Below are positions 5,306 through 22,460 of a stretch of 23,329 nt of DNA, in pieces. Positions within the stretch are counted from its first letter, which is position 1; each line of letters begins with the position of its first letter. Source of the stretch: Kofleriaceae bacterium. GTDB taxonomy: Bacteria; Myxococcota_A; Polyangia; Haliangiales; Haliangiaceae. Location: positions 1-23,329 of the forward strand of contig JBKJLC010000151.1 in the NCBI GenBank assembly GCA_046597055.1, written 5' to 3'. The notes beneath the pieces are model-generated. The model was not told the DNA's origin, did not search any database, and saw only the letters and a list, made by a program, of their open reading frames with translations. Made by a program: the position numbers and the translations under genes.

Positions 5306-5345
5306 AAGCTAGCAGGTCCGGACCGCGAATGAAACACGTTCTACC
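5306..5345 (-). promoter_or_regulatory. Palindromic operator TGAAACACGTTCTA (5330-5343) plus extended -10 TGcTAGCTT for the barrel/lipoprotein/EGF operon
   Basis: Matches TnnAACnnGTTnnA. Near-identical architecture at 22421-22460. Confidence 0.75.
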
Positions 5346-5361
5346 TCAGCCGGAAACGGTT

Positions 5362-6312
5362 TCAGGCATGGGTCGTGCGCGCCGGGTCGGGGCGCGGGGC
5401 GCGGGCCGCGTGCTCGACGGTGGTGCTGGCGCCGGCGAGCTGCGAGGTGAGCAGGCTGCCGCTGCTGCCCGGCGGCAGGAGCGTGATCCGCGCCGCACTC
5501 TCGAGCAAGCGCTGGACCTCGAGCACGTCGAACATCGCGTCGCCGATCTCGCGATCGCGCGAGATCTCGCGCAGGGCGGCGCCGACGATCTCGGGCCGGA
5601 TCGCGGCGGCCCGCGCGAACTCGACCGCGGCCATGCGCTCGGCGCTGCTCGCGATCACGCTGACCTGGTTGGCGCCGTCCTGCCGGATCGCCGAGGTCAC
5701 CTGGCGCAGCCGGTTGACCACCTTCTCCTCGATCTGCTTGGTCATCCCGGCGTCGCGAAAGTGGACCTTGCGGATGTAGATCGAGCCGACCTTGAAGCCC
5801 CAGTCGTGCGAGCGCGGCGACACCTCCTCGCGCACGGTCTGCGACAGCTCGTGGCGGTTCTCGAGCAGCCGGGCCAGCTTCATGTTCGACAGGCAGCGCA
5901 CGGTCGCGTTCGACACGTTGGCGCGCAGCGAGCCGCGCGGATCCTGGTTCTTGAACAGGTACGCGACCGGATCCGAGATGAACATCTCGTACCAGACGCC
6001 GATGCCCATCGGCGCGCCCTCCTCGGAGTTGACCGGCTGCGAGCGCAGGTAGGTCTGGTCGATGCGCAGGTCGAGCACGTAGCGCTTGCCGAGCAGCGGC
6101 ACCAGCAGGGCCTTCAGCCCCATGCGCGGCCACAGCGAGGCCAGCCCGGGCTGGTCGTAGACCGCCGCGACCTTGCCGAACAGCGTGTAGACGTGGGCCT
6201 GGCGCTCCTCGACCACGATGTAGAAGCCGAGCATGCGCAGGAGCGCGAGCAGCAGCGGCACCCCCACGGTGAACGCGACCGCGGACACGACGGCGATGGC
6301 GAACAGCGACAT
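5362..6312 (-). CDS. SPFH (band 7/stomatin/HflC-like) membrane protein, 316 aa
   Basis: ATG at 6312 overlaps the upstream TGA (TGATG). N-terminal TM segment, then FYIVVEERQAHVYTLFGK...PGL, LDLRID, ISDPVAYLF, WGFKVGSIYIRKV, then a coiled-coil-like tail. Confidence 0.88.
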   Translation of the reverse strand: MSLFAIAVVSAVAFTVGVPLLLALLRMLGFYIVVEERQAHVYTLFGKVAAVYDQPGLASLWPRMGLKALLVPLLGKRYVLDLRIDQTYLRSQPVNSEEGAPMGIGVWYEMFISDPVAYLFKNQDPRGSLRANVSNATVRCLSNMKLARLLENRHELSQTVREEVSPRSHDWGFKVGSIYIRKVHFRDAGMTKQIEEKVVNRLRQVTSAIRQDGANQVSVIASSAERMAAVEFARAAAIRPEIVGAALREISRDREIGDAMFDVLEVQRLLESAARITLLPPGSSGSLLTSQLAGASTTVEHAARAPRPDPARTTHA

Positions 6313-7331
6313 CAGCGGAGCTCCATGAAGACGCGGTCGGCGCGCGGGTAGAGCCCGAGCCGCACGTTGCGGAGGTAGGCGGCCAGGGTGTCGGGCCCGA
6401 GCTGCTTGAGCGCGCCCAGCTGGGCGGCCAGCGCGCGCAGCGGCTCGACCTCGGCCTGGGCCTTGAGCGTCTCGATCTCGACCGCGCGCCGCGACAGCAC
6501 GATGCGCTGGTCGGCCGAGGCCTGGGCCAGGCTGATGTCGGACGACACGCTGTTGTGGGCGGTGTTGATCGCGGCCAGCGCCGACTCGACCTCGTGGGGC
6601 GGCGCGATCTCGGTGATGAGCGACGCGTCGAGGTGGACCCCGTAGCGGGCGACCGAGGCGGCGCACTCGGCATCCATCATGTCGTTGAGCAGCCGCAGGT
6701 TCTTGCGCAGGTCGTTGATCGAGATGCCCGAGATCGACGACTGGTCGATCGCGGTCCCGGCCTGGTCGTGGCTGGGCGCCTCGAAGTTGGCGATGCGCTC
6801 GCGCAGGATCGAGATGAAGAAGCCCATGACGTGGGCCGGCGGGTTCTTCACGCCGAACAGGTACGCGTACAGGTTCTGCTCGGAGACGCGGAAGCGGATC
6901 TGCCCGGTCAGGCCGACGTCGAGCTGGTCCTTGGTCACCGCGTCGAGCGTGGTGCCGCCGTGGTTGGCGGCGAGGTTCTCCGGGTCCCACGCCATGTTGA
7001 CGGTCTGGGTCGCGATCGACACCTTGCGCACCTGCTGCCAGGGCCAGCAGAAGTACGGACCGCCCGGGCCGATCACGTCGACCTGCGGATACGCATAGCG
7101 CGCCTTCTCGCTGTCGCGCATGAGGTCGCCTTCGGGCGTGTAGACGGTGGTCGCGCCCAGGATGCGGCGGGCCCGGCCGAAGCTGCACAGCACCGCGCGC
7201 TCGTTCTGATCGACGGTGTAGAAGCCCATGATCACGTAGCGGATCACGAACCACGCCGTGAAGCCGAGCGCGACACCGAGCAGCCAGTCACCGCCGTCCG
7301 CGGCCCGTACCTGCAGCCAGAGTTGTTGCAT
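6312..7331 (-). CDS. SPFH (band 7/stomatin/HflK-like) membrane protein, 339 aa
   Basis: Start re-called at ATG 7331. TM segment, then FYTVDQNERAVLCSFGR, GPGGPYFCWPWQ, AVTKDQ, YGVHLDASLITEIAPP, and an Ala/Glu-rich tail. Confidence 0.88.
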   Translation of the reverse strand: MQQLWLQVRAADGGDWLLGVALGFTAWFVIRYVIMGFYTVDQNERAVLCSFGRARRILGATTVYTPEGDLMRDSEKARYAYPQVDVIGPGGPYFCWPWQQVRKVSIATQTVNMAWDPENLAANHGGTTLDAVTKDQLDVGLTGQIRFRVSEQNLYAYLFGVKNPPAHVMGFFISILRERIANFEAPSHDQAGTAIDQSSISGISINDLRKNLRLLNDMMDAECAASVARYGVHLDASLITEIAPPHEVESALAAINTAHNSVSSDISLAQASADQRIVLSRRAVEIETLKAQAEVEPLRALAAQLGALKQLGPDTLAAYLRNVRLGLYPRADRVFMELR

Positions 7332-7411
7332 CCGGCGATGCTGCGCCCGGCCGGCCCCGGCGGCAACCGCGACGCGTGGCAAGTGGCCGCGCGACCGGGC
7401 CCGGGCCGCGA

Positions 7412-8140
7412 TCAGATCAGGTCGAGGATCACGCGGACGCCGCCCCCGTACAGCGTCGCGCCGTCGCCGAGCACCGGAAAATCGACCCGGGCATACCCAT
7501 CGATGATCGGCGATCGCGGACCCTTGCCCGGCAGGATCTGGAGCGTCAGCTCCGGGCCCAGGAGCAGCACGGTCTCGTCGGCGAAGCGCGTGGTGGCGGC
7601 CAGCCCCAGCGACACCGGCTTCACCCCGACCGCGGCGCCGAGGCGCCCGGACCAGTCCCCACCGTCGAGCGTGCGTCCGGCCTCGATCATGGCGCGCAGC
7701 CGCGGCTTCTCGAACGTCTTCGGCGTGCGCTCCTCGAGGAACTCGGCGAGCACGTCCTGGTAGATCTGCCGGCTGGTCGCCGCGAGCTCGGCGCCCTCGA
7801 GGGGCCGGCCGCCCGCGGCGGCCTGCTCGATCGCCTCCGCCACGCGGGCCTTGGCGCGGTCGGTCACGATGCCCTTGACGGTCTCGGCGTCGGGGACGAT
7901 CTGCACCTTGAAGATCGAGAGGTCGAAGCCGAACCCGAGGGTCCCGTCGGTGCCGCCGCCATCGGCGACCTGGATGCCGGCGCCGACGAACGGCCCGATG
8001 GCGACCGACCGGCGCGCGCGCTGGATGACGAGCGCGGCGATCCGCCGTGCGGTCGCGTCGTCGGCGTGGGCCGGACGGGCGTCGATCCCGGTCGCCGCGA
8101 TGCCCGCCAGGACCACCATCGGTACGAGCTGCTGGTTCAT
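7412..8140 (-). CDS. Hypothetical exported protein, beta-barrel-like with a helical insertion
   Basis: Purine-rich RBS (GAAGAAGGGA), signal ending AHA-DD, amphipathic strands, C-terminal GGGVRVILDLI. Confidence 0.7.
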   Translation of the reverse strand: MNQQLVPMVVLAGIAATGIDARPAHADDATARRIAALVIQRARRSVAIGPFVGAGIQVADGGGTDGTLGFGFDLSIFKVQIVPDAETVKGIVTDRAKARVAEAIEQAAAGGRPLEGAELAATSRQIYQDVLAEFLEERTPKTFEKPRLRAMIEAGRTLDGGDWSGRLGAAVGVKPVSLGLAATTRFADETVLLLGPELTLQILPGKGPRSPIIDGYARVDFPVLGDGATLYGGGVRVILDLI

Positions 8141-8258
8141 GAACTGGTCCCTTCTTCATCGAAGCTCGCACGGCGGCGGAGCCAGCTTCAAAGGCCACGG
8201 GTGGCATCCGGTGGCGATCGAGATCACGCGGGGGGTCGCGCGCGACGCCCCGGCGTGG

Positions 8259-8272
8259 TGGAACCGGTTCCA
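8259..8272. promoter_or_regulatory. Perfect palindrome TGGAACCGGTTCCA, putative operator
   Basis: Matches TnnAACnnGTTnnA. Lies in the divergent intergenic region 8141-8625. Confidence 0.65.
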
Positions 8273-8625
8273 GTTTCGGCAGGTGAAGCGCCTGCGCAGG
8301 TTGGTGGCCGGCGCCCCGGAAGGGATCGGCGGTTTCGGGCCGGCCGCCGCACCCGACCGCGCGGTGCTCGCCGCATGTGGTCGCGCCCCGCACCCGCCGA
8401 GATCGCGCGCGCCACCCGTCTGCAACAGCGCGATAGTGCGAACGTTCCGGGCCGCGCTGGAACGAGGGCTGCCGCGCGTCCGATCCGCGGGGGCGTGCTG
8501 CGGACCGCGGTGAGACGTCGTGGTGGCATCTGCTGCGCTTCACTGACAGCATGCGGTCCGGCCCCTGCGCCGACGTGCGCGGTAGTGTCTAGCCCCCGCC
8601 AACGCCCAGCTCGGAGCACCGCCCC

Positions 8626-10014
8626 TTGAGCCAGTCCCTTCGTATCGGCAGCGCTGTCCTCGCAACTCTGGTGATCGCCGTCGCCGCGCCTGGTGGCGCC
8701 GCCGCGGCGCCCAGGCTCCAGCTCACGCCGGAGGGGCACTGGATCCGCCCGGCCGACGGCTGCGGCACCCATCAGGTGAATCGCGCCGGGACCGTGCAGC
8801 AGCACCAGCGCGCGGCCGGCAGCCAGCGCACGGTCTATCTGAACCGCAACGGCGGCACGTATCAGATCGGTGGCGGCGGCGCGACCAACGCCGGCACCAA
8901 CGTCGCCTCGTCGAGCGTCAGCGCCGACGGCCGCGGCCGCACCGCGGTCATCCCGCCGCTGGCGGCCGGGTTCAACTGGTCCGCGATCGCGGCCTGCGTC
9001 CGCGTCCACTACGACAAGTACAACATCCGCGTGGTCGAGACCGAGCCCACCAGCGGCGACTACGTCGAGGCCGTGGTCGGCGGCTTCGGCACCGAGCTCG
9101 GCTTCGGGTCCGACGAGCTGTTCGGCATCGCCTCGGCCGACAACTTCTGCGGGGTCACCGAGCGCGGCATCGCGTTCAACTTCTCGGAGACCCATCGCCA
9201 GGTCCCGCGCAAGGACGACGAGCTGTGCGCGACGATCGCGCACGAGGTCGGCCACCTGCTCGCGCTCGAGCACGAGACCCTCGCCACCGACGTGATGTCG
9301 TACGTCCTCATCGCCGACTCGTCGACCAAGGCGTTCATCGATCAGAACGTCGCGTGCGGCGTCCAGCCCGGCCAGAACCAGCCGTGCTCGTGCGGCACCG
9401 CCCAGACCAACTCGCACGCGCGCCTCGCCCAGTTCGTGGGGACCCGTCCGACCGAGACCGTGGCGCCGACGATCACGCTGGTGTCGCCCGGCGACGACGA
9501 CCGGCTATCGCCGGCCTTCACCGTGGTCGCGACCGCGGCCGACGACCAGGCGATGGAGGGCGTGGCCCTGCTGCTCGACGGCTTCGAGATCGGCAACGAC
9601 TACGAGGCGGTGGGCGACCGCTACGAGATCGCGGTCACCGACATCGCCGAAGGCGAGCACACGCTCGCGGTCGAGGCGCGCGACCAGGCCGGCAACGTCG
9701 CGATGGTCCAGATCAGCGTCATCGTCGCCAAGCTGCCGGCCGGCGAGGTCTGCGTCTCGAGCGCCGAGTGTGCCGGTGCGGTGTGCGCCACCAGCGCCGA
9801 CGGGAACTTCTGCACCCAGACCTGCGACGTCGCCAGCGACAGCTGCCCGTCCGACTTCGCCTGCTCCGAGGTCGCGGTCGGGCCTGCGCTGTGCGTGCCC
9901 GACGAGGACGCCGGCGGCTGTTGCTCGACCGGCGGCGGTCACCCCGCCTCGACCGCGCTGCTCGTGGTCGGCCTCGGCCTGCTGCTGGTGCGCCGCCGGC
10001 GCCGCGCTGCCTGA
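8626..10014 (+). CDS. Secreted metzincin (matrixin/M10-like) zinc metalloprotease with Ig-like (Big) domain, Cys-rich module and MYXO-CTERM-like anchor
   Basis: TTG start with GGAG upstream and a signal peptide. HEVGHLLALEH (9241-9273) followed by Met-turn DVMSY. APTITLVSP...GEHTLAVEARDQAGN is an Ig-like pattern. C-terminus GGCC..TM..RRRRR. Confidence 0.85.
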   Translation: MSQSLRIGSAVLATLVIAVAAPGGAAAAPRLQLTPEGHWIRPADGCGTHQVNRAGTVQQHQRAAGSQRTVYLNRNGGTYQIGGGGATNAGTNVASSSVSADGRGRTAVIPPLAAGFNWSAIAACVRVHYDKYNIRVVETEPTSGDYVEAVVGGFGTELGFGSDELFGIASADNFCGVTERGIAFNFSETHRQVPRKDDELCATIAHEVGHLLALEHETLATDVMSYVLIADSSTKAFIDQNVACGVQPGQNQPCSCGTAQTNSHARLAQFVGTRPTETVAPTITLVSPGDDDRLSPAFTVVATAADDQAMEGVALLLDGFEIGNDYEAVGDRYEIAVTDIAEGEHTLAVEARDQAGNVAMVQISVIVAKLPAGEVCVSSAECAGAVCATSADGNFCTQTCDVASDSCPSDFACSEVAVGPALCVPDEDAGGCCSTGGGHPASTALLVVGLGLLLVRRRRRAA

Positions 10015-10055
10015 GGGCACCTCGGCGCCCGAGCCTCTGCTAGATTTGCCAGGAC

Positions 10056-11141
10056 ATGGCAAGCAAGCTGAAGGTTGGCGTCCTCGGCGCCACCGGTATG
10101 GTGGGCCAGCGCTTCGTCGCGCTGCTCGCTGATCACCCCTGGTTCGAAGTCGCCGCGGTCGCGGCGAGCCCCAGCTCCGCCGGCAAGGCCTACGCCGATG
10201 CCGTCGCCGGACGCTGGTCGCTCGCCACCCCGGTGCCCGACGCCGCGGCCCGGCTCCGCGTGACCGACGCGTCCGACGTCGCCACGATGGCGGACCAGGT
10301 CGACTTCGTGTTCTGCGCGGTCGACATGGCGAAGGAGGCGACGGCCAAGCTCGAGCTCGACTACGCGCGGGCCGAGGTCCCGGTGGTGTCGAACAACTCG
10401 GCGCACCGGTGGACGCCCGACGTCCCGATGATGATCCCCGAGATCAACGCCGATCATGCGGCGGTGATCGAGGCCCAGCGGAGCCGCCTCGGCGTCCGCC
10501 GCGGCTTCATCGCGGTCAAGCCCAACTGCTCGATCCAGAGCTACGTGCCCGCGATCCACCCGCTGCTCGCGTTCGGCCCCAAGCGGCTGGCGGTGTGCAC
10601 CTACCAGGCGATCTCGGGCGCCGGCAAGACGTTCGAGACCTGGCCCGAGATGGTCGACAACGTGATCCCCTTCATCAAGGGCGAAGAAGAGAAGAGCGAG
10701 CAGGAGCCGCTCAAGATCTGGGGCCACCTCGACGACGGCAAGATCGTGAACGCGACGGCCCCGGCGATCACGGCGCAGTGCTTGCGGGTGCCGGTGTCCG
10801 ACGGCCACATGGCCGCGGTGTTCGTCGCCTTCGAGCGCAAGCCGGGCAAGGACGAGATCCTGGCGGCGTGGAAGGAGTTCAGCGGCCGGCCGCAGGCGCT
10901 GGGCCTGCCCAGCGCGCCCACGCCCTTCCTGCACTACACCGACGAGGAGTCGCGGCCGCAGACCCGGCTCGATCGCGACGCCGGCAACGGCCAGGCGGTG
11001 ACGATCGGTCGGCTGCGCCCGGACGCGGTCTTCGACTGGCGGTTCGTGGCGCTGTCGCACAACACCGTGCGCGGCGCGGCCGGCGGCGCGGTGCTGACCG
11101 CCGAGCTGCTGACCGCCGACGGCTATCTCGGCGCTCGCTAG
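10056..11141 (+). CDS. asd: Aspartate-semialdehyde dehydrogenase
   Basis: KVGVLGATGMVGQRF nucleotide-binding motif, SNNSAHR, VPMMIPEIN, catalytic PNCS, QAISGAG, RVPVSDGH, HNTVRGAAG. Confidence 0.97.
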   Translation: MASKLKVGVLGATGMVGQRFVALLADHPWFEVAAVAASPSSAGKAYADAVAGRWSLATPVPDAAARLRVTDASDVATMADQVDFVFCAVDMAKEATAKLELDYARAEVPVVSNNSAHRWTPDVPMMIPEINADHAAVIEAQRSRLGVRRGFIAVKPNCSIQSYVPAIHPLLAFGPKRLAVCTYQAISGAGKTFETWPEMVDNVIPFIKGEEEKSEQEPLKIWGHLDDGKIVNATAPAITAQCLRVPVSDGHMAAVFVAFERKPGKDEILAAWKEFSGRPQALGLPSAPTPFLHYTDEESRPQTRLDRDAGNGQAVTIGRLRPDAVFDWRFVALSHNTVRGAAGGAVLTAELLTADGYLGAR

Positions 11142-11155
11142 CAACGGCCGGCGGC

Positions 11156-11590: not shown

Positions 11591-11613
11591 CCGCGGCACA
11601 CCCGGGGCGCAGG

Positions 11614-11664
11614 TGGAACATGTTCTATTTTCGAGCTCGTGGCCCCGGGCCCGCGTGCTAGCGT
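11614..11664 (+). promoter_or_regulatory. Palindromic operator TGGAACATGTTCTA (11614-11627) plus extended -10 TGcTAGCGT (-10 at 11659-11664)
   Basis: Matches TnnAACnnGTTnnA. The -10 ends 7 nt before ATG 11672, with no SD sequence. Confidence 0.75.
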
Positions 11665-11671
11665 CTCGGCC

Positions 11672-12127
11672 ATGACAGCCCGGGCCGGGTCGATCGTCGG
11701 TGTGATCGTGTCGGTGGGGCTGCTGGCCCGCGCCGCGAGCTCGAACCCACCGCCGGTGCCGCCGGCCGCCTCCGCGGCGGTCGCGGCCGCCGAGGCGCCG
11801 CGCGGCATGGTCGCGTTCGTCGCCGGGGCCGCGTGCCCGCCGGGGTGGCAGGTCTCGACCCTCGCCGCCGGGCGCGTGCTGGTCGGCACCGACCGGGCCG
11901 AGGCGGTCGGCCGCGTGGTCGGCGAGCCGCTCGGCGCCGAGGAGGATCGCGCCCACGTCCACGCGCTGGGCGTCGCGAACCTCACCCTGCCGGCGCGGGC
12001 GATCGCCGGCGCCGACGGCGGCAACCACAACGGCGCGGCCTCCGGCGCCCAGCCGCTCACCGGGACCACCGGGGCGGCCAGCTCGGGGCTGCCGTTCGTG
12101 CAGCTCCCCGCGTGCGTGTCGCCGTGA
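11672..12127 (+). CDS. Exported phage tail-collar-like protein (one domain)
   Basis: Signal-like N-terminus ending ARA. PRGMVAFVAGAACPPGW...GRVLVG...VG...HVH...PFVQLPAC matches the collar/short tail-fibre pattern. Confidence 0.72.
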   Translation: MTARAGSIVGVIVSVGLLARAASSNPPPVPPAASAAVAAAEAPRGMVAFVAGAACPPGWQVSTLAAGRVLVGTDRAEAVGRVVGEPLGAEEDRAHVHALGVANLTLPARAIAGADGGNHNGAASGAQPLTGTTGAASSGLPFVQLPACVSP

Positions 12128-12963
12128 GCCGCGCGCAGCGAGGCGGCCGGCTCGCCACGATCCTGGCGGCGGCGCTCGCGGGCGCGTGCGCCGGCAGCTC
12201 GGCCGGCGGCGACGCGCCGGTGGACGCCGTGGTCGAGCCCGAGCCCGACGCGGCCGTGACCACGCGCGGCGACGGCTTCCCGCCCGGCGCGATCTCGTTC
12301 TTCATGGCGACGTTCTGCCCGGCCGGCTGGTCGCCGTACGCTGACGCGGTCGGGCGCACGATCATCCCGTCGCCCGGGGCGGGCGCCGGCATGCCGGTCG
12401 GCACCGCGTGGGCCGCCAACCAGGAGCCGGCCCACCGCCACGCCCTCGCGATCGCGGTCGATCTGCCGGCGGTCAGCTACGTCGGCATCGTCGGCGGCGG
12501 CAACCACGGCGTCACCCGTGGCGGCCGGGTCGAGGGCACCGCGGCCACCGACGCGACCGTCGACGCGGTGCCCTACGCGCAGCTGCGGGTCTGCCGCAAG
12601 ACCGCGCCGTCCGGCGACCGGACACCCCCGCGCGGCGTGATCGCGTTCTTCGCCACCCCGGCGTGCCCGGCGCCGTGGACCGAGGCGGCGACCGCGCTGC
12701 ACGGCCGGGTGATGGTCGCGCTGCCGGCCGGCGGCACCCCGGGGGCGACCTTCGGGGGCGAGCCGCTGGCGCCGGGCGAGGCGCGCACCCACGTCCATCC
12801 GGTGACCGCCACCCTGGCCGCGGCCGCCCACGGCATCGGGCTGGCGAGCGGCTGCTGCGGCGGGGGCTACGGCGCGGCCGGCACCCACGTGACCACGACC
12901 ACCGCGGCGCCCGCGCCGGTCGACGTGCCGTACCTCCAGCTGCTCGCCTGCCTGGCGCCGTGA
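12124..12963 (+). CDS. Lipoprotein with two tandem tail-collar-like domains
   Basis: GTG overlaps the upstream TGA (GTGA). Lipobox-like LAGA-C. Domain 1: PPGAISFF..CPAGW..GRT..HRH..PYAQLRVC. Domain 2: PRGVIAFF..CPAPW..GRV..HVH..PYLQLLAC. Confidence 0.75.
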   Translation: MSRAQRGGRLATILAAALAGACAGSSAGGDAPVDAVVEPEPDAAVTTRGDGFPPGAISFFMATFCPAGWSPYADAVGRTIIPSPGAGAGMPVGTAWAANQEPAHRHALAIAVDLPAVSYVGIVGGGNHGVTRGGRVEGTAATDATVDAVPYAQLRVCRKTAPSGDRTPPRGVIAFFATPACPAPWTEAATALHGRVMVALPAGGTPGATFGGEPLAPGEARTHVHPVTATLAAAAHGIGLASGCCGGGYGAAGTHVTTTTAAPAPVDVPYLQLLACLAP

Positions 12964-13730
12964 CCGAGCCCGACTTCCCCGCCGGCGTCGCCGCCGTGCT
13001 CGGCGGCAGCGGCGGCATCGGCCGCGCGATCGTCGAGCGACTCGCCGAGCACGGCGCCAGCGTCGCGCTCACCTATCGCGGCAACCAGGCCGCGGCCGAG
13101 GCGGCGGCCCGCGCCGCCCGCGCCGCCGGCGTCGCGGCCTCGACCCACCGGCTCGAGCTCGGCGATCCGACCGCGGTGCGCGACTTCTTCGACCAGCTCC
13201 GCGACCACTACCGGCGGGTCCACACCGTGGTCCATGCCGCCGGCTCGGCGATCGGTCAACCGTTCATCGGCGAGGTCGAGCCCGCGCAGTGGCGCGCGGT
13301 GATCGAGGCCGACGTCAACGGGGTGTTCGACGTGGTCCACAGCTCGCTGCCGCTCCTGCGCGACGGCGGCGGCTCCTACGTCTTCCTCAGCTCGGCCGGG
13401 CTCGAGCGCTATCCGGCCGGCGACATCCTGTCGGTCGCCCCCAAGGCGGCGGTCGAGGCCCTGCTGCGCGGCCTGGCCCGCGAGGAGGGCCGCCACGGCG
13501 TCCGCGCCAACAGCGTCGCCCTCGGGGTGATCGACGCTGGCATGTTCCCGCGCCTGGTCGAAGGTGGGCAACTGTCGGCAGTGTGGGTCGAGGCGGCCCG
13601 CCGCAACGTGGCGCTGCGTCGGTTCGGCAACGCCGGCGAGGTCGCCGACGCGGTGGTGTTCCTGGCGTCGCGCCGGGCCAGCTACGTGACGGGCCAGCGG
13701 CTCTTGCTCGATGGGGGCTACTCGATCTGA
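12960..13730 (+). CDS. Short-chain dehydrogenase/reductase (FabG/FabL-like) with an atypical active site
   Basis: GTGA overlap with the upstream gene. GGSGGIG, HAAG, LSS, KAAVEAL, GVRANSVALG, FLAS..ASYVTGQ.L.LDGG. Confidence 0.92.
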   Translation: MTEPDFPAGVAAVLGGSGGIGRAIVERLAEHGASVALTYRGNQAAAEAAARAARAAGVAASTHRLELGDPTAVRDFFDQLRDHYRRVHTVVHAAGSAIGQPFIGEVEPAQWRAVIEADVNGVFDVVHSSLPLLRDGGGSYVFLSSAGLERYPAGDILSVAPKAAVEALLRGLAREEGRHGVRANSVALGVIDAGMFPRLVEGGQLSAVWVEAARRNVALRRFGNAGEVADAVVFLASRRASYVTGQRLLLDGGYSI

Positions 13731-13758: not shown

Positions 13759-14979
13759 GTGTCCGAACAAGCCGATCGCCGGCGCCACCATGGTGACGAC
13801 CTGCGCGGCGCGACCCGCCTCATCATCGAGGCGACCCGCGGCGTGACGGCGGTGGTCGAGGCGATGCACCACACCATCGCCGGTGGCCCGGAGCTGCTGG
13901 GCAAGCCGCTGGCGGTGCCGAGTCGCATCCTGACCCGGGTCGTCTACGGCGGCATCCGCGGCGTGACCACGCTGGTCGGCGCCGGCATCGATCAGGTCCT
14001 GGTGCGGCTGGGCGCCGTGCTCGGCGCCAGCGCGCCCGGGCCCGAGCGCGAGGCGGTCCACGCCGCGCTGAGCGGCGTGCTCGGCGACTACCTGCACGAG
14101 ACCGGCAACCCGCTGGCGATCACGATGCGCCTGCGCCACCTGGGCGCGCCGCTCGAGCTGAGCGCGGCCGCCCTGCAGGCGGCCCACCCGGGCGCGGCCG
14201 GACGGGTCCTGCTCCTGATCCACGGCGCGTGCGGAAATGACCTGCAGTGGAACCGGCGCGGGCAAGACCAGGCCGCCGCGCTCGCCCGCGACCTCGGCTA
14301 CACGCCGCTCTACCTGCACTACAACAGCGGCCTCCACGTCTCGACCAACGGCGCGGCGCTGGCGGGGCTGCTCGAGGAGCTGGTCGCAGCCTGGCCGGTG
14401 CCGCTCGAGGAGCTCGCGATCGTCGCTCACAGCATGGGCGGGCTGGTCGCCCGCAGCGCGTGCCATGCCGGTGACACCGCCGGCCACCGCTGGCGGCCCC
14501 TGCTGCGCAGCCTGGTGTGCCTGGGCACGCCCCACCACGGCGCGCCGCTCGAGCGCGGCGGCAGCTGGATCGACCAGCTGCTCGGCATCAGCCGCTACAG
14601 CGCGCCGCTCGCGCGCCTGGGTCAGATCCGCAGCGCCGGCGTGACCGACCTGCGCTTCGGCAACGTGCTCGACGAGCACTGGGTCGGCCGCGATCGGTTC
14701 GCGCACGGCGACGACCCGCGCGGGCCGGTGCCGCTGCCGGCCGGGGTCCAGTGCTACGCGATCGCGGCGACCACCGCGCGCGCCGATGCCGGCAGCCTGC
14801 CCGGCGACGGCCTGGTGCCGGTCTCGAGCGCGCTCGGCCAGCACGCGCACAAGGCGATGACGCTGGGCTTCCTGCCCGAGCACCAGTGGATCTGCCTCGG
14901 CACCACCCACATGGATCTGCTCGCCCGGCCCGAGGTCTACGCCAAGCTGCGCGAGTGGCTCACGCGGACGGCTCGCTGA
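13759..14979 (+). CDS. Alpha/beta hydrolase, lipase/esterase (PGAP1-like); start uncertain (GTG 13741 or 13759)
   Basis: LLIHG oxyanion strand, YNSGLH, nucleophile AHSMGG, LGTPHHGAP, GDGLVP, C-terminal HMDLL. Confidence 0.88.
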   Translation: MSEQADRRRHHGDDLRGATRLIIEATRGVTAVVEAMHHTIAGGPELLGKPLAVPSRILTRVVYGGIRGVTTLVGAGIDQVLVRLGAVLGASAPGPEREAVHAALSGVLGDYLHETGNPLAITMRLRHLGAPLELSAAALQAAHPGAAGRVLLLIHGACGNDLQWNRRGQDQAAALARDLGYTPLYLHYNSGLHVSTNGAALAGLLEELVAAWPVPLEELAIVAHSMGGLVARSACHAGDTAGHRWRPLLRSLVCLGTPHHGAPLERGGSWIDQLLGISRYSAPLARLGQIRSAGVTDLRFGNVLDEHWVGRDRFAHGDDPRGPVPLPAGVQCYAIAATTARADAGSLPGDGLVPVSSALGQHAHKAMTLGFLPEHQWICLGTTHMDLLARPEVYAKLREWLTRTAR

Positions 14980-15823: not shown

Positions 15824-15826
15824 GAT

Positions 15827-15841
15827 GTCGATAGTATCGAC
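15827..15841. promoter_or_regulatory. Palindrome GTCGATA-G-TATCGAC containing back-to-back -10 elements (bidirectional promoter candidate)
   Basis: TAGTAT on + ends 8 nt before ATG 15846. TACTAT on - ends 7 nt before GTG 15823. Confidence 0.6.
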
Positions 15842-15845
15842 CGCG

Positions 15846-16931: not shown

Positions 16932-16940
16932 GCGGCGGGA

Positions 16941-17236: not shown

Positions 17237-17240
17237 ATTT

Positions 17241-17574
17241 CCGGTGGCCCTGAGCCGGCGCCGAAGGCGCCGTGTCGAAGGGCAGACCTCAGGATTGATC
17301 CCAAGTCTCCATGCGATCGGAAGCGCTCACCCTTGCCCGGTGTCCCTGAGCCGGCGCCGAAGGCGCCGCGTCGAAGGGCAGCGCGGCAAGGAGCCGCACG
17401 CCGCTCCGACGGGCTGCCCTTCGACGGCGGGCTCGCGTGCGCTCGCCCTGGCTCAGGGCCACCGGGAAGATGTGCGGGATCCTGAGGGCAGACGCACCGG
17501 GTGCAGCACGTTTCCTCGACCCTCCTCGCTGCGCGAACCCCGGCGCAGGGCCACCGGAACGTTGTGCGGGATCG
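17241..17574. repeat. REP-like palindromic repeat cluster: two direct copies and two inverted copies
   Basis: 17241-17285 and 17337-17381 are identical at 43/45 nt (CCGGTGKCCCTGAGC-hairpin-GTCGAAGGGCAG). An inverted copy lies at 17414-17465 and a degenerate inverted copy ends near 17557. The two inverted copies share the downstream TGTGCGGGATC. Confidence 0.85.
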
Positions 17575-17582
17575 TGCGTGGC

Positions 17583-18761
17583 TCAGCGCAGCAGGCCGAA
17601 CACGACCGCCAGCGCCGCCAGCACCGCGACGGCGATCATGATCGTCATCGTCGTCGACATCTCTCCGCGGCGCGCCCGACCGCGGCCGCGGAGCTGCTGG
17701 GTCGCGCCGGCGTCGGGCGCAGCGGTCGCGCCTCCGGTCTCCGCCCCCGCCGCCGCACGCTCATCCGCCGCGCCCGCGGCCGGCGATGCCGCGCGCGGGG
17801 TCGGGGCCCGCGGCGCGCGCGCCGGCGACGGCCCGAACGCCGGCTGGGTCGACGCCCACTCGGCCGCCGCCTCGGCCGCGCCGCCGGTCACCGGCTGGCC
17901 GTTGACCGTGGCTTCGTAGGCCTGCAGGACCTCGTAGGTCGAGGTCACGGTCTCGAACTCGTCGGCCGGGTCGAGGCCGTCGCCGGTCAGGTCGGCGACG
18001 ATCGCGGTCTCGTTGTCGTCGCCACCGCGATCGTTGGCGAGCGCGATCATCGCCTCGCAGGCGGCGCGCGGCTCGGTCCCGGTCATGATCGCGAGCAACT
18101 CGGCGTCGGACACCGCATTGGTGACGCCGTCCGAGCACAGGAGGAAGCGGTCGCCGCGGCGCAGCACGAGGCGGGCGATCGCGACCCGGACGTCGTCGTT
18201 GAGCCCGACCGCCTGCAGGATCACGTTCTTGCCGGGGGCGTGGCGCGCCTCCTCGGCCGACATCACGCCGTGATCGACCAGCAGCTGGACCAGGCTCTGG
18301 TCGCGCGTGATCTGGCGGAGCCGGCCCTGGCGCAGCAGGTACGCGCGCGAGTCCCCGACCTCGGCGATGAACGCCTCGCCGCCGCGCACGAACACCGCGG
18401 TCAGGGTCGCGCCCATGCCGTGGCGGTTGCCGGTCCGCGCCGCCGTGATCACGCTCTGGTTGGCCCGCTTGACCGCCGCCTCGAGCTGCTCGTGAACCGG
18501 GCCCTTGCTGTCGCTCTGGAGCGCCTTCTGCAGCGACTCGAGCACCAGCGCGCTGGCAACCTCGCCGGCCTGGTGGCCGCCCATCCCGTCGGACAGCGCC
18601 AGCAGCACGCCGCGCTCCTGCACGTCGACCGCGGCGCTCTCGCCGGAGTCGTCGAGCTGGGTCCCGCTCGCGAGATCCATCATCGCGAAGGCGTCTTCGT
18701 TGGTGGTGCGCGCCCGGCCGACGTCGGTCAGCGCGGACACCACGATCTTGACGGCGGGCAT
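17583..18761 (-). CDS. PP2C-family (Stp1/PrpC-like) Ser/Thr protein phosphatase with C-terminal TM anchor
   Basis: Start re-called at ATG 18761. TDVGRAR..NEDA, SDGMGGHQAGEVAS, MGATL, VGDSRAY, LLCSDG, GGDDNET, then an Ala-rich linker and a hydrophobic tail. Confidence 0.93.
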   Translation of the reverse strand: MPAVKIVVSALTDVGRARTTNEDAFAMMDLASGTQLDDSGESAAVDVQERGVLLALSDGMGGHQAGEVASALVLESLQKALQSDSKGPVHEQLEAAVKRANQSVITAARTGNRHGMGATLTAVFVRGGEAFIAEVGDSRAYLLRQGRLRQITRDQSLVQLLVDHGVMSAEEARHAPGKNVILQAVGLNDDVRVAIARLVLRRGDRFLLCSDGVTNAVSDAELLAIMTGTEPRAACEAMIALANDRGGDDNETAIVADLTGDGLDPADEFETVTSTYEVLQAYEATVNGQPVTGGAAEAAAEWASTQPAFGPSPARAPRAPTPRAASPAAGAADERAAAGAETGGATAAPDAGATQQLRGRGRARRGEMSTTMTIMIAVAVLAALAVVFGLLR

Positions 18762-18868
18762 CGTCGGTTCTCGAGCGCGGGCAGGACACCCGGCGCAGTT
18801 GCAACCAGCGTCGCACGGGTCCCGGGCGCCGTCCACGGGTCGGGCACTCCGGGTGTACCTTGCCGGCC

Positions 18869-19045
18869 GTGACGGACGACCGCGAGCGACGTGACCTGCA
18901 TGCGCTGGACGAGAACGGGATGCTGGTCTGCAACCCGCGCGACCGCGAGGCCGCCCACCGGGCCGAGATGGAGGGCATCGCCACCGAGCGCCACGCCGCC
19001 GTCACCTGCCAGAAGTGCCGGGCGCTGCTGCACCGGAAGCCGTGA
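18869..19045 (+). CDS. Small putative zinc-binding protein (H..C..CxxC), 58 aa
   Basis: LHALDENGMLVC...VTCQKC; GC3-rich codons; TACCTT 7 nt before the GTG. Confidence 0.65.
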   Translation: MTDDRERRDLHALDENGMLVCNPRDREAAHRAEMEGIATERHAAVTCQKCRALLHRKP

Positions 19046-19076
19046 CCCGATCGCGCGGTGCCGGCTCTCGATAGGG

Positions 19077-19841
19077 ATGATGCATTCGACCCGTCCTGCC
19101 AATGTCTGCACTTTCGCGGTGTTCGCGCTCGCGCTGGCCGCCTGCGGCAGCGGCGACGGTGGCGGCGCGGGCGGGTCCGACGACTCGCCGATCGACGCGG
19201 CCGTGCCGCCGGAGGTCGGATGTGGGCAACTGCTCGCGACCATCCGCGACTTCAATGCCAGTCACCCGGACTTCGAGGAGCCCGACGGGTTCAGCGACTT
19301 CGCGCGGCCCGGCCTGGTCGAGCCGCTCCTCGGCGCCGACCGCACGCCGGTGTACGCGCCCGACGGCGCGGTCGATCCCCACACCACCGGGGCGGCAGAG
19401 TTCGCCGACTGGTACCACGATGTGCCGGGCGTGAATCGCTCGTATCCCTACGTCCTCGACCTCGTCGAGCAGGGCGGCAGCCGGGTGTTCGACAGCTCCG
19501 CGTTCTTCCCGCTCGACGGCACCGGGCTCGGCAACGAAGGTCGCCCCCACAACTTCCACTTCTCGACCGAGATCCACACCAGCTTCCAGTACCGGGGCGG
19601 TGAGGTCTTCAACTTCCGCGGCGACGACGACCTGTGGCTGTTCATCAACGGGCGCCTCGCGCTCGATCTCGGCGGCCTCCATCCCTCGCTGCCGGGCTCG
19701 GTCGACATGGACGCGCAGGCCGCCGCGCTCGGCCTGGTCCCCGGCAACCTCTACGACATGGACATCTTCCACGCCGAGCGTCACACCGACGCCTCGAACT
19801 TCCGCATCGAGACGACGATCGACTGCTTCATCGTCCCGTGA
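19077..19841 (+). CDS. Fibro-slime (PA14-related) domain lipoprotein
   Basis: Lipobox LAA-C. IRDF..HPDFE, F.DWY.D, FFPLDG, HNFHFSTEIH, FNFRGDDDLWLFING.LALDLGGLH, IFHAERHT..SNFRIET. Confidence 0.9.
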   Translation: MMHSTRPANVCTFAVFALALAACGSGDGGGAGGSDDSPIDAAVPPEVGCGQLLATIRDFNASHPDFEEPDGFSDFARPGLVEPLLGADRTPVYAPDGAVDPHTTGAAEFADWYHDVPGVNRSYPYVLDLVEQGGSRVFDSSAFFPLDGTGLGNEGRPHNFHFSTEIHTSFQYRGGEVFNFRGDDDLWLFINGRLALDLGGLHPSLPGSVDMDAQAAALGLVPGNLYDMDIFHAERHTDASNFRIETTIDCFIVP

Positions 19842-19993
19842 GCTGACCGGCCGAGCGCCGCCCCCGAGCGCCCGTCAGGGTCGCCGGCTCCTTGGCGTCA
19901 CGGATCCCGCGCCAGCCGCACACCGACGCGCGTGGTGGGCTCGCCTGATCGTCGGCGCGCGTCACATCCGGCGCCGGCGGGGCTCCACCTGGC

Positions 19994-20845
19994 ATGTGCA
20001 TGTTCTCGGGCCCGGTCGGGGAGGTCTCGGCGACCAGCATCCTGGTGCGGCCGGTCGGCGACCGCCAGCTGCTGGTGTACCAGCTCACCCTGGTGGCACC
20101 CGAGCCGGTCGCGATGGTGGTGCCGGTGCCGACCCCGGTCGGCGCCGGCGACGACGCGGTGCGCTTCATCGATCTGGCGGGCTACCCCGACCTGTTCGCC
20201 GATCTGCGCCGTGCGTTCGCGACCTGGACCTTCGGCCCCGGGCTGTCCGCGCACGAGACGCCGCTGCCGGCGCTGCCGGTGCACCAGGTCGGCAGCTTCG
20301 TCGCGTAGTTCGTGCCGAGCCCGGCCGACTTCGGCCGGCTCGATCCCCGGTTCCGGCTCGCCGCCGACGTGATCCGGGCGTTGCCGCGCTACCGCGACTG
20401 GGGCTTCGTGGTGTTCCAGCTCGCGGGCCGGCCCGATCCCCAGACCGTGCACCCGATGGCGTTCGAGCTCACCAGGCGGTTCCCCGACCGCCTGTTCGTA
20501 CCGACCACCCACGTGCACGACGGCCGGGTCCCGCTGACCGCGAGCTTCGATCACGAGATCTACCTGCAGGGCGAGCGCGATGACGATCCGTGGGAGCGCG
20601 CGCTCGACGACGCCGGCCCCGAGCCGTTCTACGAGCTGCGCACGCCACCGTACGCGCTGCGCTGGACGGGTGACGTCAGCCTGCGGGCGCGTGGGGTCGG
20701 CCTGGCGCTGGCCGATCGCGCGACCCGGATCGTGCTCGCCGGCGTGCGCGAGAACGTCGACACCTGGTTCTCGCCCGAGCGCGGCCTGGACCGGCCCCGC
20801 CGGGCCGGCCGTCCCCGCCCCCCGACGCCGCGGCCGCGGCCGTGA
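19994..20845 (+). pseudogene. Conserved-looking hypothetical gene interrupted by a single in-frame TAG (20306-20308)
   Basis: Track ORFs 19994..20308 and 20312..20845 share a frame and read continuously as HQVGSFVA*FVPSPADFGRLDPRF. Confidence 0.75.
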
Positions 20846-20890
20846 CCGCGCCGGTCAGCGCTTGGTCATCGCCACCCTCGCGACGCCCGG

Positions 20891-22393
20891 TCAATAATCG
20901 ACCAGGTTGGCGGCGCGCCCCACCGGGCCCACCGGGGCCGTGACCGCGCCGGTGCCACCCGCGCCGCCGAGGCCGCCAGTGCCGATCTCGATCACGTTGG
21001 CGCCCGGCTCCCCGGTGGCGTTGAGCCCGCCAGCGACCACCGCGACGCCGATCGACGGGCCGCCCGCGCCCCCGGCGCCGCCCCCGCCGTGGCCGCCATG
21101 CCCGCCAATCCCACCGGCGGCGCCGGCCCCGGCGCGGTACGTGATGGCGCCGCACTGCTGCGACGGTGCGCCCTGCCGACCCGCGCTGCCGTCGGTGCTG
21201 CCGGGTCCGCCGGGATGGCCGTCGCCGCCGACGCCGCCGGCGCCGCCGAGCCCGCCGATGATCGCGACCGCCTCGACCGACAGGGTCGCGCGGATGATGA
21301 CGACCCCGAACGCCCCGCCGCCCCCGCCGCCAGTCGCGCCGCCCCCGCCGCCGCAGCCGCCCGGCGCGCCGTCGCCGCCGCGGCCGCCAGGCAGCGTGCC
21401 GCAGCCGAAACACACCCGGAACCGCTTGCTGCCACCCGAGCCACCGCCGCTGCCGCCGGTGCCGTGGGCGCCGCGCCGCCCGGGCTCGCCGGCGGCTGCC
21501 ACCCAGACGTCCTCCTCGAAGCGGCCGTCGTCGTCGGTCGCGGGCACGCCGGACCCGCCGGCGCCGCCGTTGTTGCCGTTGCCGCCGACGCCCCCGCCGC
21601 TGATGCCGTCGCTGCCGACCAGCGGGCAGGCGTTGGGGCAGTTGCTGCCGCCGGACGTGCCGGGCGCGCTGGCGCTCGCGGGATCGCCGCCGGCGTCGCC
21701 CAGCCGGCCGCTGTTGCCGCCGCAGTCGTAGGCGGTGCCGCCGTCGCCGCCCCGGACCAGACAGCTGGTGAGCGCGCCATCGTCGCCGGGCGCGCCGCGC
21801 GCGCCGCGGCCGGCCTCGATCCGCACCGAGCGGAGCTGCACCGCATCGCCGGTGTCGCGCACGCGCAGCGCGATGCTGGAGCTGCCATCGGTGCGCGCGC
21901 TCAGGTCCGCGCCGCGGAGGGTCACCCCGTCGACGACCGTGGCGGCGATCAGCGCCTCGGCGGTGACCGTGACCGGCAGCTCGCTGGTGAGCACCACCGG
22001 ATAGACCACGAGATCGCGGGTCGCGAACCCGGGCGCCCAGCCGCCCTCGAGGTCGACGCCGGCCGCCAGCGCGATCGACTCCTGATAGAGGCCCTCGGCG
22101 ATCCGCACCGCGCACGGCCCCGGGACACAGCCGCCGGCGCGCTCGATCGCGACCGCGACGTGGCGGAGCGGCTGGGCCGGGTCGCGCCCGGTGTTCGAGT
22201 CGTGCCCGTCGATCGAGACGAACAGGATCGGTGGCGGCGGGCCATCGTCCGGGCTGGCACCGTCCGCGGGGGCGTCGGTGGTCACCGCGCCGTCACCGCC
22301 ATCGCCGTCGGGGCCCGCGCCGGTGCGCGCGTTCGCGCACGCGGCCAGCACGGCCGTGATCGCGGCTGCCTGGAATATCTTCCCTCCGAGCAT
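20891..22393 (-). CDS. Lipoprotein with a DUF1565/parallel beta-helix-like N-terminal domain and a Gly-rich (PE-PGRS-like) region with Cys pairs
   Basis: GAGGAGG RBS; lipobox LAA-C; LFVSIDGHDSNTG..PLR...VRIAEGLYQESI.L..GV.LEGG; GGxGGxGG tracts. Confidence 0.85.
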   Translation of the reverse strand: MLGGKIFQAAAITAVLAACANARTGAGPDGDGGDGAVTTDAPADGASPDDGPPPPILFVSIDGHDSNTGRDPAQPLRHVAVAIERAGGCVPGPCAVRIAEGLYQESIALAAGVDLEGGWAPGFATRDLVVYPVVLTSELPVTVTAEALIAATVVDGVTLRGADLSARTDGSSSIALRVRDTGDAVQLRSVRIEAGRGARGAPGDDGALTSCLVRGGDGGTAYDCGGNSGRLGDAGGDPASASAPGTSGGSNCPNACPLVGSDGISGGGVGGNGNNGGAGGSGVPATDDDGRFEEDVWVAAAGEPGRRGAHGTGGSGGGSGGSKRFRVCFGCGTLPGGRGGDGAPGGCGGGGGATGGGGGGAFGVVIIRATLSVEAVAIIGGLGGAGGVGGDGHPGGPGSTDGSAGRQGAPSQQCGAITYRAGAGAAGGIGGHGGHGGGGAGGAGGPSIGVAVVAGGLNATGEPGANVIEIGTGGLGGAGGTGAVTAPVGPVGRAANLVDY

Positions 22394-22420
22394 CCGGTAC
22401 CTCCTCGCAGAACCGCGCTC

Positions 22421-22460
22421 AGGCTAGCAGGGTCATGGCATCGGTGAAACATGTTCTACC
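22421..22460 (-). promoter_or_regulatory. Palindromic operator TGAAACATGTTCTA (22445-22458) plus extended -10 TGcTAGCCT for the Gly-rich lipoprotein gene
   Basis: Identical at 15/16 nt to 5330-5345, with the same spacing to CCTGCTAGC. Confidence 0.75.

Follow-up and report, generated by a model that had tools for sequence, protein, structure and literature searches.

A putative KstR-type regulon that appears to reach conserved envelope proteins in a Kofleriaceae-type myxobacterium

The 23,329-bp contig JBKJLC010000151.1 of a Kofleriaceae bacterium, called the window throughout as the whole stretch of DNA that was analysed, carries four copies of a 14-bp palindrome resembling the operator of KstR, the TetR-family repressor of cholesterol catabolism in mycobacteria and rhodococci. 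Why would a myxobacterium carry such sites, which regulator would act on them, and what would the genes beside them have to do with sterols? The original prediction, made from the letters of the window, was that a KstR-like regulator encoded outside the window co-controls otherwise unrelated surface proteins. We propose that three of the sites, those at 5330, 11614 and 22445, are very probably operators for a TetR-family KstR homologue encoded on another contig of the same genome, the grounds being comparisons of DNA and protein sequence. What the envelope proteins downstream of these sites would do is a separate and more tentative matter, to which we return after the evidence for the regulon.

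The window is contig C70 of genome bin G000, which comprises 8.38 Mb in 303 contigs with 72.3% G+C. Genes in the window were called from codon-position G+C (GC3), with Pfam as a check. A search of the window with the loose motif pattern TNNAACNNGTTNNA gives exactly four matches (Table 1), and no match was found in any of 100 dinucleotide-preserving shuffles of the window. Both the coordinates and the sequences of the four sites had been given correctly, there is no fifth match, and all four are intergenic, as claimed, with no match in the window's coding DNA. The earlier figure of about 0.02 chance matches per window is also what an estimate from genome composition gives under independent, identically distributed (i.i.d.) bases, equal to 7.7 sites per 8.38 Mb. 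The true background is above that expectation, since the genome holds 50 matches to the loose pattern. Twenty of these, as a rule with AT at the centre, fit the tighter core T[AG][AG]AACnnGTT[CT][CT]A; the other 30 or so are GC-rich variants unrelated to it and fall mostly within coding sequence.

The 20 tight-core sites of the genome were used to build a symmetrised position weight matrix (PWM), with which the whole genome was then scanned. The top 17 sites score at least 24.7, and 16 of them are intergenic in a genome whose gene calls cover about 86% of the DNA, leaving about 14% intergenic (binomial P = 4e-13); below 24.7, 12 of 20 sites fall inside coding sequence. Thus the intergenic enrichment that a regulon would call for is present among the strongest sites, and the palindrome TnnAACnnGTTnnA stands at promoters, as in a KstR-type regulon. 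Sites 22445, 11614 and 5330 are all within the top 17, and site 8259 scores 18.8. Several catabolic genes of this genome have their start codon 8–9 nt past the end of the operator. Two other readings of the motif were rejected. It is not the -35 element (GGAAC/TGAAAC) of a promoter for an extracytoplasmic function (ECF) sigma factor, given that the palindrome is symmetric, that both orientations work, and that a sigma-70-type extended -10 lies downstream. Nor does it belong to a mobile element or a repeated promoter cassette. Apart from the operator and the -10 nothing is conserved from one site to the next: the flanks vary, and the spacers differ everywhere, which rules out a copied cassette.

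The KstR motif is given as TnnAACnnGTTnnA, the palindrome TAGAAC(N2)GTTCTA, and a KstR dimer binds probes that carry it, according to Kendall et al. 2007 (PMC1995591), with which the original naming of the motif agrees. The regulator that had been placed outside the window has a good candidate in a TetR-family gene on contig C1. It is located between two strong operators, divergent from a ketosteroid dehydrogenase-type gene and upstream of a Mce-type operon, and one operator lies 68 bp upstream of it, in the gap common to the two divergent genes. The gene thus carries an operator in its promoter, as an autoregulated repressor would, and so do 10 of the 11 relatives' loci examined, the exception being G021. 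The best matches of the protein among PDB sequences are KstR chains (5aqc, 5cw8, 3mnl and 5ua2, E 2.7e-19 to 4.6e-19, with about 195 residues aligned), and among NCBIfam models the KstR equivalog scores highest, with 109 bits. Counted on the printed alignment, its identity to KstR is about 30% overall and reaches 19 of 35 positions around the helix-turn-helix. Both features predicted for the regulator, an operator in its own promoter and a KstR-like recognition helix, are therefore found in one gene. Because 109 bits falls under the 280-bit cut-off of the equivalog, we call the protein a KstR homologue and not an orthologue. Close relatives of the repressor (60–89% identity) are common in metagenomes, several of them in Kofleriaceae bins, and some are automatically labelled "cholesterol catabolism regulator".

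The targets outside the window give the regulon its character. Fourteen strong sites lie there, on contigs C1, C31, C48, C117, C161 and C298, and in Pfam and NCBIfam scans of the flanking genes all 14 flank genes with steroid- or lipid-catabolic domains. The expectation that operators would be found upstream of steroid and fatty-acid catabolic genes was thus borne out, at the domain level, by every strong site outside the window. Among the targets are a 3-ketosteroid-delta-1-dehydrogenase-type flavoprotein and two KshA-type Rieske oxygenases with a KshA_C domain. One run begins with a cytochrome P450 and continues with an Acyl-CoA_dh_2 (HsaA-like) enzyme, a BphC-type extradiol dioxygenase and an alpha/beta (meta-cleavage) hydrolase; the same set includes a fumarylacetoacetate-hydrolase-fold protein, an acetaldehyde dehydrogenase and an HMGL-like aldolase. 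A Mce-type operon encodes ABC ATPases, two MlaE permeases and two MlaD proteins. The remaining targets comprise ChsH2-type OB-fold and thiolase-like proteins, several acyl-CoA dehydrogenases and ligases, enoyl-CoA hydratases, a CoA-transferase, SCP2 and a GMC oxidoreductase. Genes for cholesterol transport and for its catabolism are therefore both represented, as in a KstR regulon, at the level of domains only; the scans give domain families, and names such as kstD, kshA, cyp125, hsaA/C/D/E/F/G, mce4, chsH/ltp2 and ipdAB/echA20 are applied by analogy. Judged by these domains, the genes whose promoters the operator marks add up to a near-complete set for steroid catabolism of the actinobacterial type.

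If the homologue reads the palindrome, the two should be found in the same genomes. The comparison set consisted of 40 related genomes (labelled G001 and so on), with the reversed pattern as the motif control; since these are non-independent genomes, co-occurrence is given as counts and not as a statistical test. The tight pattern occurs 12–44 times in 12 of the 40 relatives, in which the control occurs 0–1 times, and 0–5 times in the other 28, in which the control occurs 0–7 times. A repressor homologue is encoded by all 12 motif-rich relatives (E 3e-74 or better) and by only two of the 28 motif-poor ones, G011 and G021, whose homologues are both more distant. Within the window's own genus, 8 of 16 genomes have a homologue at E <= 1e-20, and seven of these eight are motif-rich; the eighth, G011, has the more distant homologue just mentioned and a single motif match. 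The system therefore behaves as an accessory trait. The envelope genes of the window follow the same distribution: 10 of the 12 motif-rich relatives, and none of the other 28, have orthologues of D, L or S (Table 1; S at 59% identity or more).

Table 1. Candidate operators, promoter elements and genes in the window (last row, contig C1 of the same genome); "PWM" is the score against the position weight matrix
Feature	Position	Strand	Remarks
Operator 1 (TGAAACACGTTCTA)	5330..5343		promoter-proximal, over the -35 position of D-C-B; exact match; PWM 25.3
Decayed distal operator	5351..5364		21 bp from operator 1; two mismatches to the core
Extended -10 (TGnTAnnnT) of D promoter	5306..5314	-	18 nt past the operator
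D, predicted secreted small outer-membrane beta-barrel protein, 250 aa	4533..5285	-	AlphaFold2 and Foldseek
C, lipoprotein, 339 aa, no recognised family	3493..4509	-	lipobox LVAGC
B, 1,035-aa lipoprotein, EGF-like and Sushi/CCP repeats	361..3468	-	Pfam; lipobox LAGC
Site 2 (TGGAACCGGTTCCA)	8259..8272		118 bp upstream of G (7412-8140, -); 353 bp upstream of H (8626-10014)
Operator 3 (TGGAACATGTTCTA)	11614..11627		upstream of K-L; exact match; PWM 28.8
Extended -10 (TGcTAGCGT)	11656..11664	+	31 nt past operator 3; 7 nt before the K ATG
K, secreted or membrane-anchored, 151 aa, one tail-fibre-tip-like repeat with invariant HxH	11672..12127	+	
L, lipoprotein, 279 aa, two copies of the K-type repeat	12124..12963	+	
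Short-chain dehydrogenase/reductase (SDR)	12960-13730	+	Pfam adh_short_C2, E 1.2e-48
PGAP1-like alpha/beta hydrolase	13711 or 13759 to 14979	+	Pfam PGAP1, E 4.7e-9
Operator 4 (TGAAACATGTTCTA)	22445..22458		over the -35 position of the S promoter; exact match; PWM 29.0
Extended -10 (TGcTAGCCT) of S promoter	22421..22429	-	18 nt past operator 4
Decayed second operator	22371..22384		just inside the S reading frame; three mismatches
S, 500-aa glycine-rich lipoprotein	20891..22393	-	lipobox LAAC
TetR-family repressor, 219 aa	G000:C1:10076-10735		Pfam TetR_N and TetR_C_20

The D-C-B operon shows the arrangement most clearly. D has orthologues in four relatives (G003, G008, G009 and G032), and in all four the order D-C-B is kept, with identities of 49–63% for D, 66–72% for C and 74–80% for B and with flanking genes that have no counterpart in the window. 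In each of them, a pair of operators spaced by 21 bp stands upstream of D. The operator or operators are likewise found upstream of D in five of five metagenome contigs with upstream DNA, a sixth contig beginning inside the gene; one of the five may lack independence because its match statistics equal those of G009, as expected for the same or a near-identical organism. A wider search of genome contigs for D returned only three genomes, all previously found. In each of the five D upstream regions that were aligned, the order is operator, 18-nt spacer, TGnTAnnnT, AGGAGG ribosome-binding site and ATG. Because an extended -10 follows after 18 nt at both the D and the S promoters, the half of the operator proximal to the promoter sits at the place of the -35 hexamer.

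The product of D has near its N-terminus a hydrophobic stretch, taken to be a signal peptide, after which comes an Ala/Pro-rich linker. Its AlphaFold2 model, made with 20 relatives, has a mean predicted local distance difference test (pLDDT) score of 81, with most 10-residue blocks from residue 71 onward above 90, and displays about ten long antiparallel strands. Against PDB, Foldseek returns 26 matches at E <= 1e-3, and all are small outer-membrane barrels (the OmpA transmembrane domain, OmpW, OprG, NspA, Ail and AlkL). D is thus predicted to be a closed antiparallel barrel of the OmpW/OmpA type with a signal peptide, although it belongs to none of the curated barrel families (Pfam OmpW, OMP_b-brl, OmpA_membrane), with no Pfam match at E <= 0.1 and no NCBIfam match at E <= 1e-5. 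Foldseek E values to the OmpW/OprG/AlkL and OmpA/OmpX/Ail barrels run from 1e-6 to 1e-3; unlike those proteins, D has no Pfam match, ends in His and not in an aromatic residue, and has about ten predicted strands where the matched barrels mostly have eight. The D family numbers 22 clusters among 5.8 billion. C has no significant match in Pfam, NCBIfam, PDB sequences (none at E <= 1) or Atlas (best score 0.85, below the useful range). In B, Pfam recognises EGF (E 2.6e-31, five stretches) and Sushi (E 5.8e-28, three stretches). These repeats, together with a MYXO-CTERM domain in H, speak against an actinobacterial origin of the high-GC window, which would have made the sites trivial, and the MYXO-CTERM domain upholds the assignment of the host to the myxobacteria.

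Several smaller observations concern this unit. Outside the EGF and Sushi repeats, B has two long Cys-rich repeats at the N-terminal side and, at the C-terminal side, about 300 aa without a family match, and it is more conserved across genomes than are its operon partners. Just upstream of operator 1, on the same strand, are the adjacent genes E and F (5362-7331), one of which is an SPFH/Band 7 gene and its neighbour a gene without a Pfam match; the stop codon of E falls within the decayed distal operator. In G009, a gene for an ERG4/ERG24-family sterol reductase (C341, L058:1175-2518; E 3e-76) adjoins D-C-B, and its start is 10 bp from a perfect operator.

The S promoter is built in the same way. 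Orthologues of S occur in six relatives, with 59–64% identity over the main match, and operators are found at the start of the gene at six of six loci; at loci of more distant S paralogues, none of the five checked has one. Among seven aligned S upstream regions, six have the operator, an 18-nt spacer and TAnnnT, and five of these six have TG two bases upstream; in the seventh, that of G023, there is just the site at the start of the open reading frame. In G003, G004, G007 and G009, a perfect operator begins 6 nt past the S ATG. The plus-strand neighbour of site 22445 is a dihydrouridine synthase gene, which has a promoter-like region of its own about 75 bp further on. The S family is restricted to Myxococcota, and S has no match in Pfam, NCBIfam or PDB sequences; its Atlas clusters scoring 0.98 are unnamed or called "PGRS family", and 35% of one lower-ranked cluster gives a lead to DUF1565 (beta-helix).

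The third unit, K-L, has a different promoter design. L has orthologues in seven relatives, and the operator precedes the K-L unit in six of six with readable upstream DNA (G004, G007, G012, G026, G029 and G032). The 7 nt between the -10 and the K ATG imply a leaderless transcript. In G026 and G032 the operator stands before K with the 18-nt design, and in G004, G007 and G012 a gene of about 430 aa lies between operator and K. A domain scan of this gene in G004 (L052:5986-7299) and G012 (L050:2954-4252) identified a secreted, Zn-dependent phospholipase C with a Big_5 domain (E about 1e-6 and 2e-5), the second of these matches being just under the Pfam cut-off. In both genomes its promoter consists of the operator, 31 nt, TGnTAGAAT, 8 nt and ATG. 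That the same operator and leaderless promoter stand before the phospholipase C gene suggests that the window's lineage lost the gene and kept the promoter. The Zn-dependent phospholipase C family has one sub-threshold match in this genome, on a contig without an operator. Between operator and -10 of the phospholipase C promoter of G012 (L050:2867-2897) there is a perfect 12-bp palindrome at the -35 place, and the window has a different, 8-bp palindrome at the equivalent place in the K promoter; such a palindrome may be the site of a second regulator.

K and L are proteins with neither a family nor a clear fold. In an alignment of eight orthologues of K, H95 and H97 are invariant. In L, both HxH pairs and several cysteines are invariant. 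Of 5.8 billion clusters, 29 belong to the L family, and no Pfam domain is present in any of these; K and L themselves have no Pfam match at E <= 0.1, to Collar (PF07484) or otherwise. The AlphaFold2 model of L has a pLDDT of 76; Foldseek finds nothing for it at E <= 0.001, and in a wide structural search (VIA-align) the top rows are tail-fibre tips of phages and of extracellular contractile injection systems (eCIS), at Z 2.5–3.4, below a convincing level. Prediction of a complex between mature L and mature K scored 0.86 in three runs, with 0.00 for the best of three controls, at least 91% contact agreement between runs, a partner pLDDT of at least 87 and about 460–480 contacts. The mark for such scores is reached by 116 of 157 solved complexes and by 2 of 215 mismatched pairs, counts that hold only roughly here because our own alignments were used as input. 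The prediction supports binding of K to L in one intertwined 1:1 heteromer with three repeats bearing HxH and Cys residues. T4 fibre tips are trimers that hold a metal ion by HxH motifs. The weak structural matches are to the tips of T4 gp37 (2xgf), T4 gp12 (1ocy), Pa223 (9nxk) and the Photorhabdus eCIS (8on5), and the three beta-rich HxH repeats predicted in one intertwined body resemble the arrangement of the T4 tips; unlike in phage tips, the three repeats of K-L are spread over two lipid- or membrane-anchored cellular proteins and not over three identical chains. In the models, K-L looks like a cellular, lipid-anchored pseudo-trimer.

The two genes after L stand outside the conserved unit. 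Four nucleotides are common to the end of L and the start of the SDR gene. The hydrolase, which follows, has orthologues in 18 relatives, with and without the repressor; at 0 of 13 loci examined is there a motif, or K, L or SDR, nearby. SDR and hydrolase are probably window-specific passengers of a K-L insertion, co-transcribed with it here only. The original prediction had assigned site 5330 to D-C-B, site 11614 to a collar-collar-SDR-lipase operon and site 22445 to S. Each site was given to the right genes, K-L-SDR-hydrolase in the second case, and the operon of four genes fails as a unit of the regulon, K and L being its only conserved members. Conservation of the operator upstream of orthologous targets holds for sites 5330 (four of four genomes and five of five contigs for D), 22445 (six of six loci for S) and 11614 (six of six relatives for K-L) and fails for site 8259 (0 of 22 loci). 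In the same way, the proposed co-control of surface proteins is supported for D-C-B, K-L and S and not for SDR, the lipase and the genes beside site 8259.

How would such a regulon operate, and what would its envelope units do? We suggest that a repressor dimer on the operator would block RNA polymerase at the D and S promoters and that a sterol-derived acyl-CoA from the pathway would release it, as for mycobacterial KstR, which a sterol-derived CoA thioester releases (review PMC6678751). One signal would then switch on the catabolic enzymes, the Mce-type importer and the three envelope units, so that the latter would be co-induced with catabolism. The least-supported step is the last, in which the envelope units would give a two-membrane cell access to the sterols of foreign membranes and a way to take them in. 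Whatever sterol it uses would have to be external, because a search of this genome for the oxidosqualene/squalene cyclase family gave weak partial matches only (best Pfam score 43.9 bits) and no convincing sterol cyclase. Sterol capture would be a plausible role for these units. It is favoured because the orthologues are found only together with the steroid regulon, because a barrel and a lipoprotein are a plausible means of passage through the outer membrane, and because in sister genomes the first gene of the K-L operon encodes a phospholipase C. In its full form the proposal is that Kofleriaceae-type myxobacteria may possess a sterol-induced surface harvesting apparatus on a KstR-type switch. 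The K-L heteromer and, in sister genomes, the secreted phospholipase C would dock on and open foreign membranes that contain sterol; the D barrel and two lipoproteins, one with EGF and Sushi repeats of eukaryote type, would capture the sterol and carry it through the outer membrane to the Mce-type importer; and the glycine-rich surface lipoprotein S would be a further part. We put this forward tentatively.

Several points weigh against these proposals. The bin is estimated to be 94% complete with 7.55% contamination; a mix-up by contamination is countered by the joint presence of repressor and window targets in several independent bins. In the window itself, the second operators of the D and S promoters are decayed, and operator 3 lies upstream of the -35, centred near -50, which would be unusual for simple occlusion. 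The score of the repressor, below the equivalog cut-off, does not imply orthology or the ligand specificity of KstR. As to the envelope proteins, none has a sequence feature showing sterol binding, and the modelled fold of D is common to the non-transporter barrels OmpA, OmpX and Ail and cannot tell a channel for hydrophobic substrates from an adhesin.

These last points lead to the first alternative, that the operators are real and the envelope units serve a task unrelated to sterol uptake: protection or remodelling of the envelope against detergent-like sterol intermediates, adhesion, or a social or predatory trait timed with lipid feeding. C, K, L and S are of no recognised family, D is a generic barrel whose fold also matches the adhesin barrels Ail, OpcA and NspA, B has EGF and Sushi repeats of the adhesion type, and K-L weakly resembles the receptor-binding tips of phages; nowhere is there a lipid-binding signature. 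Such a task would leave unexplained why the orthologues keep so strictly to the motif-rich relatives (10 of 12 against 0 of 28), and the phospholipase C that heads the K-L operon in sister genomes is a better fit to membrane attack than to self-protection. We consider this alternative possible, although doubtful.

A narrower alternative, as in the original prediction, counts site 8259 as a fourth functional operator, with G or the metalloprotease-like H under its control. All 14 bp of the site form a perfect palindrome, it conforms to the tight core as well as to the published consensus, and the intergenic gap that holds it is the longest of the window. By the i.i.d. estimate, chance matches to the tight core are rare (about 0.5 per genome and 0.001 per window); the true background must be several-fold higher because three genome matches have a G/C-only centre, two of them in coding DNA. 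The CG centre of site 8259 is found in none of the top 17 sites, and its score places it among the weaker sites of the genome, those below 24.7, most of which are in coding sequence. Orthologues of G (13 relatives) and of H (26 relatives) occur both in genomes that have the repressor and in genomes that lack it. Even with one mismatch allowed, none of the 22 loci examined, 11 for G and 11 for H, has a motif within 1.5 kb, repressor-carrying genomes included. There is also no TAnnnT at +18 or +31 on either strand, that is, no -10 at the conserved spacings. With a weaker score, no conservation and no promoter geometry, site 8259 is probably a chance match, and a role as a regulon operator for G or H seems somewhat unlikely.

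Another possibility is that the regulon senses the general supply of lipid or fatty acyl-CoA and not sterols specifically, the surface units scavenging prey membrane lipids. Many targets are generic beta-oxidation-type genes, and phospholipase C (in relatives) and lipase (in the window) genes occur in operator-led operons. Moreover, genes regulated by mycobacterial KstR are also induced by palmitate, as Kendall et al. report (PMC1995591). The operator, however, is also found ahead of ring-specific genes, namely the two KshA-type oxygenases, the ketosteroid dehydrogenase-type gene, the extradiol dioxygenase and hydrolase set and SCP2, and in G009 it adjoins the sterol reductase gene; a general lipid sensor is therefore unlikely. 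That some other TetR paralogue or dimeric regulator binds the palindrome, with the C1 homologue a mere neighbour, is highly improbable: the search for other TetR genes beside operators was non-exhaustive and the C1 protein scores under the equivalog cut-off, but repressors of the C1 type have the operator upstream here and in 10 of 11 relatives and are present in 12 of 12 motif-rich relatives, the more distant homologue of G021 has no upstream operator and lives in a motif-poor genome, and the DNA-reading helix region is the part of the C1 protein most like KstR.

Returning to the proposal of a KstR-type switch, its likeness to the system of KstR (Rv3574 / MSMEG_6042) in Mycobacterium and Rhodococcus is extensive. 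Both use the same 14-bp palindrome with TAGAAC-type half-sites and a TetR-family repressor with an operator in its own promoter, and the targets of both include Mce-type transport and side-chain and ring-opening enzymes. Some promoters here have two operators, some operators lie inside reading frames, and operators overlap promoter elements; two-site promoters, intragenic sites and motif overlap with promoter elements are likewise described for mycobacterial KstR in PMC1995591. The host differs, being an uncultured, two-membrane Kofleriaceae-type myxobacterium, and the repressor is only about 30% identical to KstR and below the equivalog cut-off. Unlike in the KstR regulon, the motif is also found ahead of a CoA-transferase and enoyl-CoA hydratase cluster, which in mycobacteria is part of the separate KstR2 regulon. 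A further difference is that the putative regulon contains conserved outer-membrane and lipoprotein genes, which the mycobacterial KstR lists, in the available text of PMC1995591, do not.

The switch itself, a TetR repressor on a palindrome, is an ordinary one, and it is the context that gives it weight. A near-complete gene set for actinobacterial-type steroid breakdown, together with its control code, in uncultured Myxococcota would represent a new phylum for steroid breakdown. In their available text, two large surveys of steroid degraders in genomes and metagenomes (PMC4810484 and PMC5790920) contain no word starting with "myxo" or "deltaproteobacteria", and in the full-text literature we found no report of KstR or of sterol or steroid catabolism in Myxococcota, most subscription journals lying outside the coverage, so that absence is unproven. 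The literature on sterol synthesis treats Myxococcota as producers, and Cyp51 is reported in Kofleriaceae metagenome-assembled genomes (PMC12004948). The operator would therefore be an easy genomic marker with which to separate sterol consumers from producers. If our reading is true, steroid catabolism would occur in a phylum so far known for making sterols. The KstR-type regulon appears here, judging from conserved sites and a located repressor gene, to extend to conserved envelope proteins. To our knowledge, the passage of hydrophobic sterols across the outer membrane is poorly understood, and membership in the regulon yields a short list of conserved candidates, envelope proteins of no known family, for this step. 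If borne out, this would be the first account of a two-membrane bacterium that takes sterols from the membranes of prey or host.

Three further observations were made along operator-marked loci. In G026 (L053:4067-9038), the genes that come after K-L encode a TonB-dependent receptor, a YfiR/HmsC-like protein and a hybrid histidine kinase whose sensor domain is CHASE8. On contig C48 of the window's genome, the strong operator at 9169-9182 lies inside an acyltransferase-like reading frame, 225 bp past the operator shared with a KshA-type gene; pairs of sites with an equal 225-bp spacing are present in G004 (C12) and G007 (C511), and the site looks like a conserved intragenic operator. Finally, the operator-marked steroid cluster of the same contig contains genes for the biosynthesis of coenzyme F420 (C48:11548-21000), namely CofC-, CofD- and CofE-type genes and two radical-SAM CofH-like genes, and beside them are a luciferase-like monooxygenase and an F420-type oxidoreductase.

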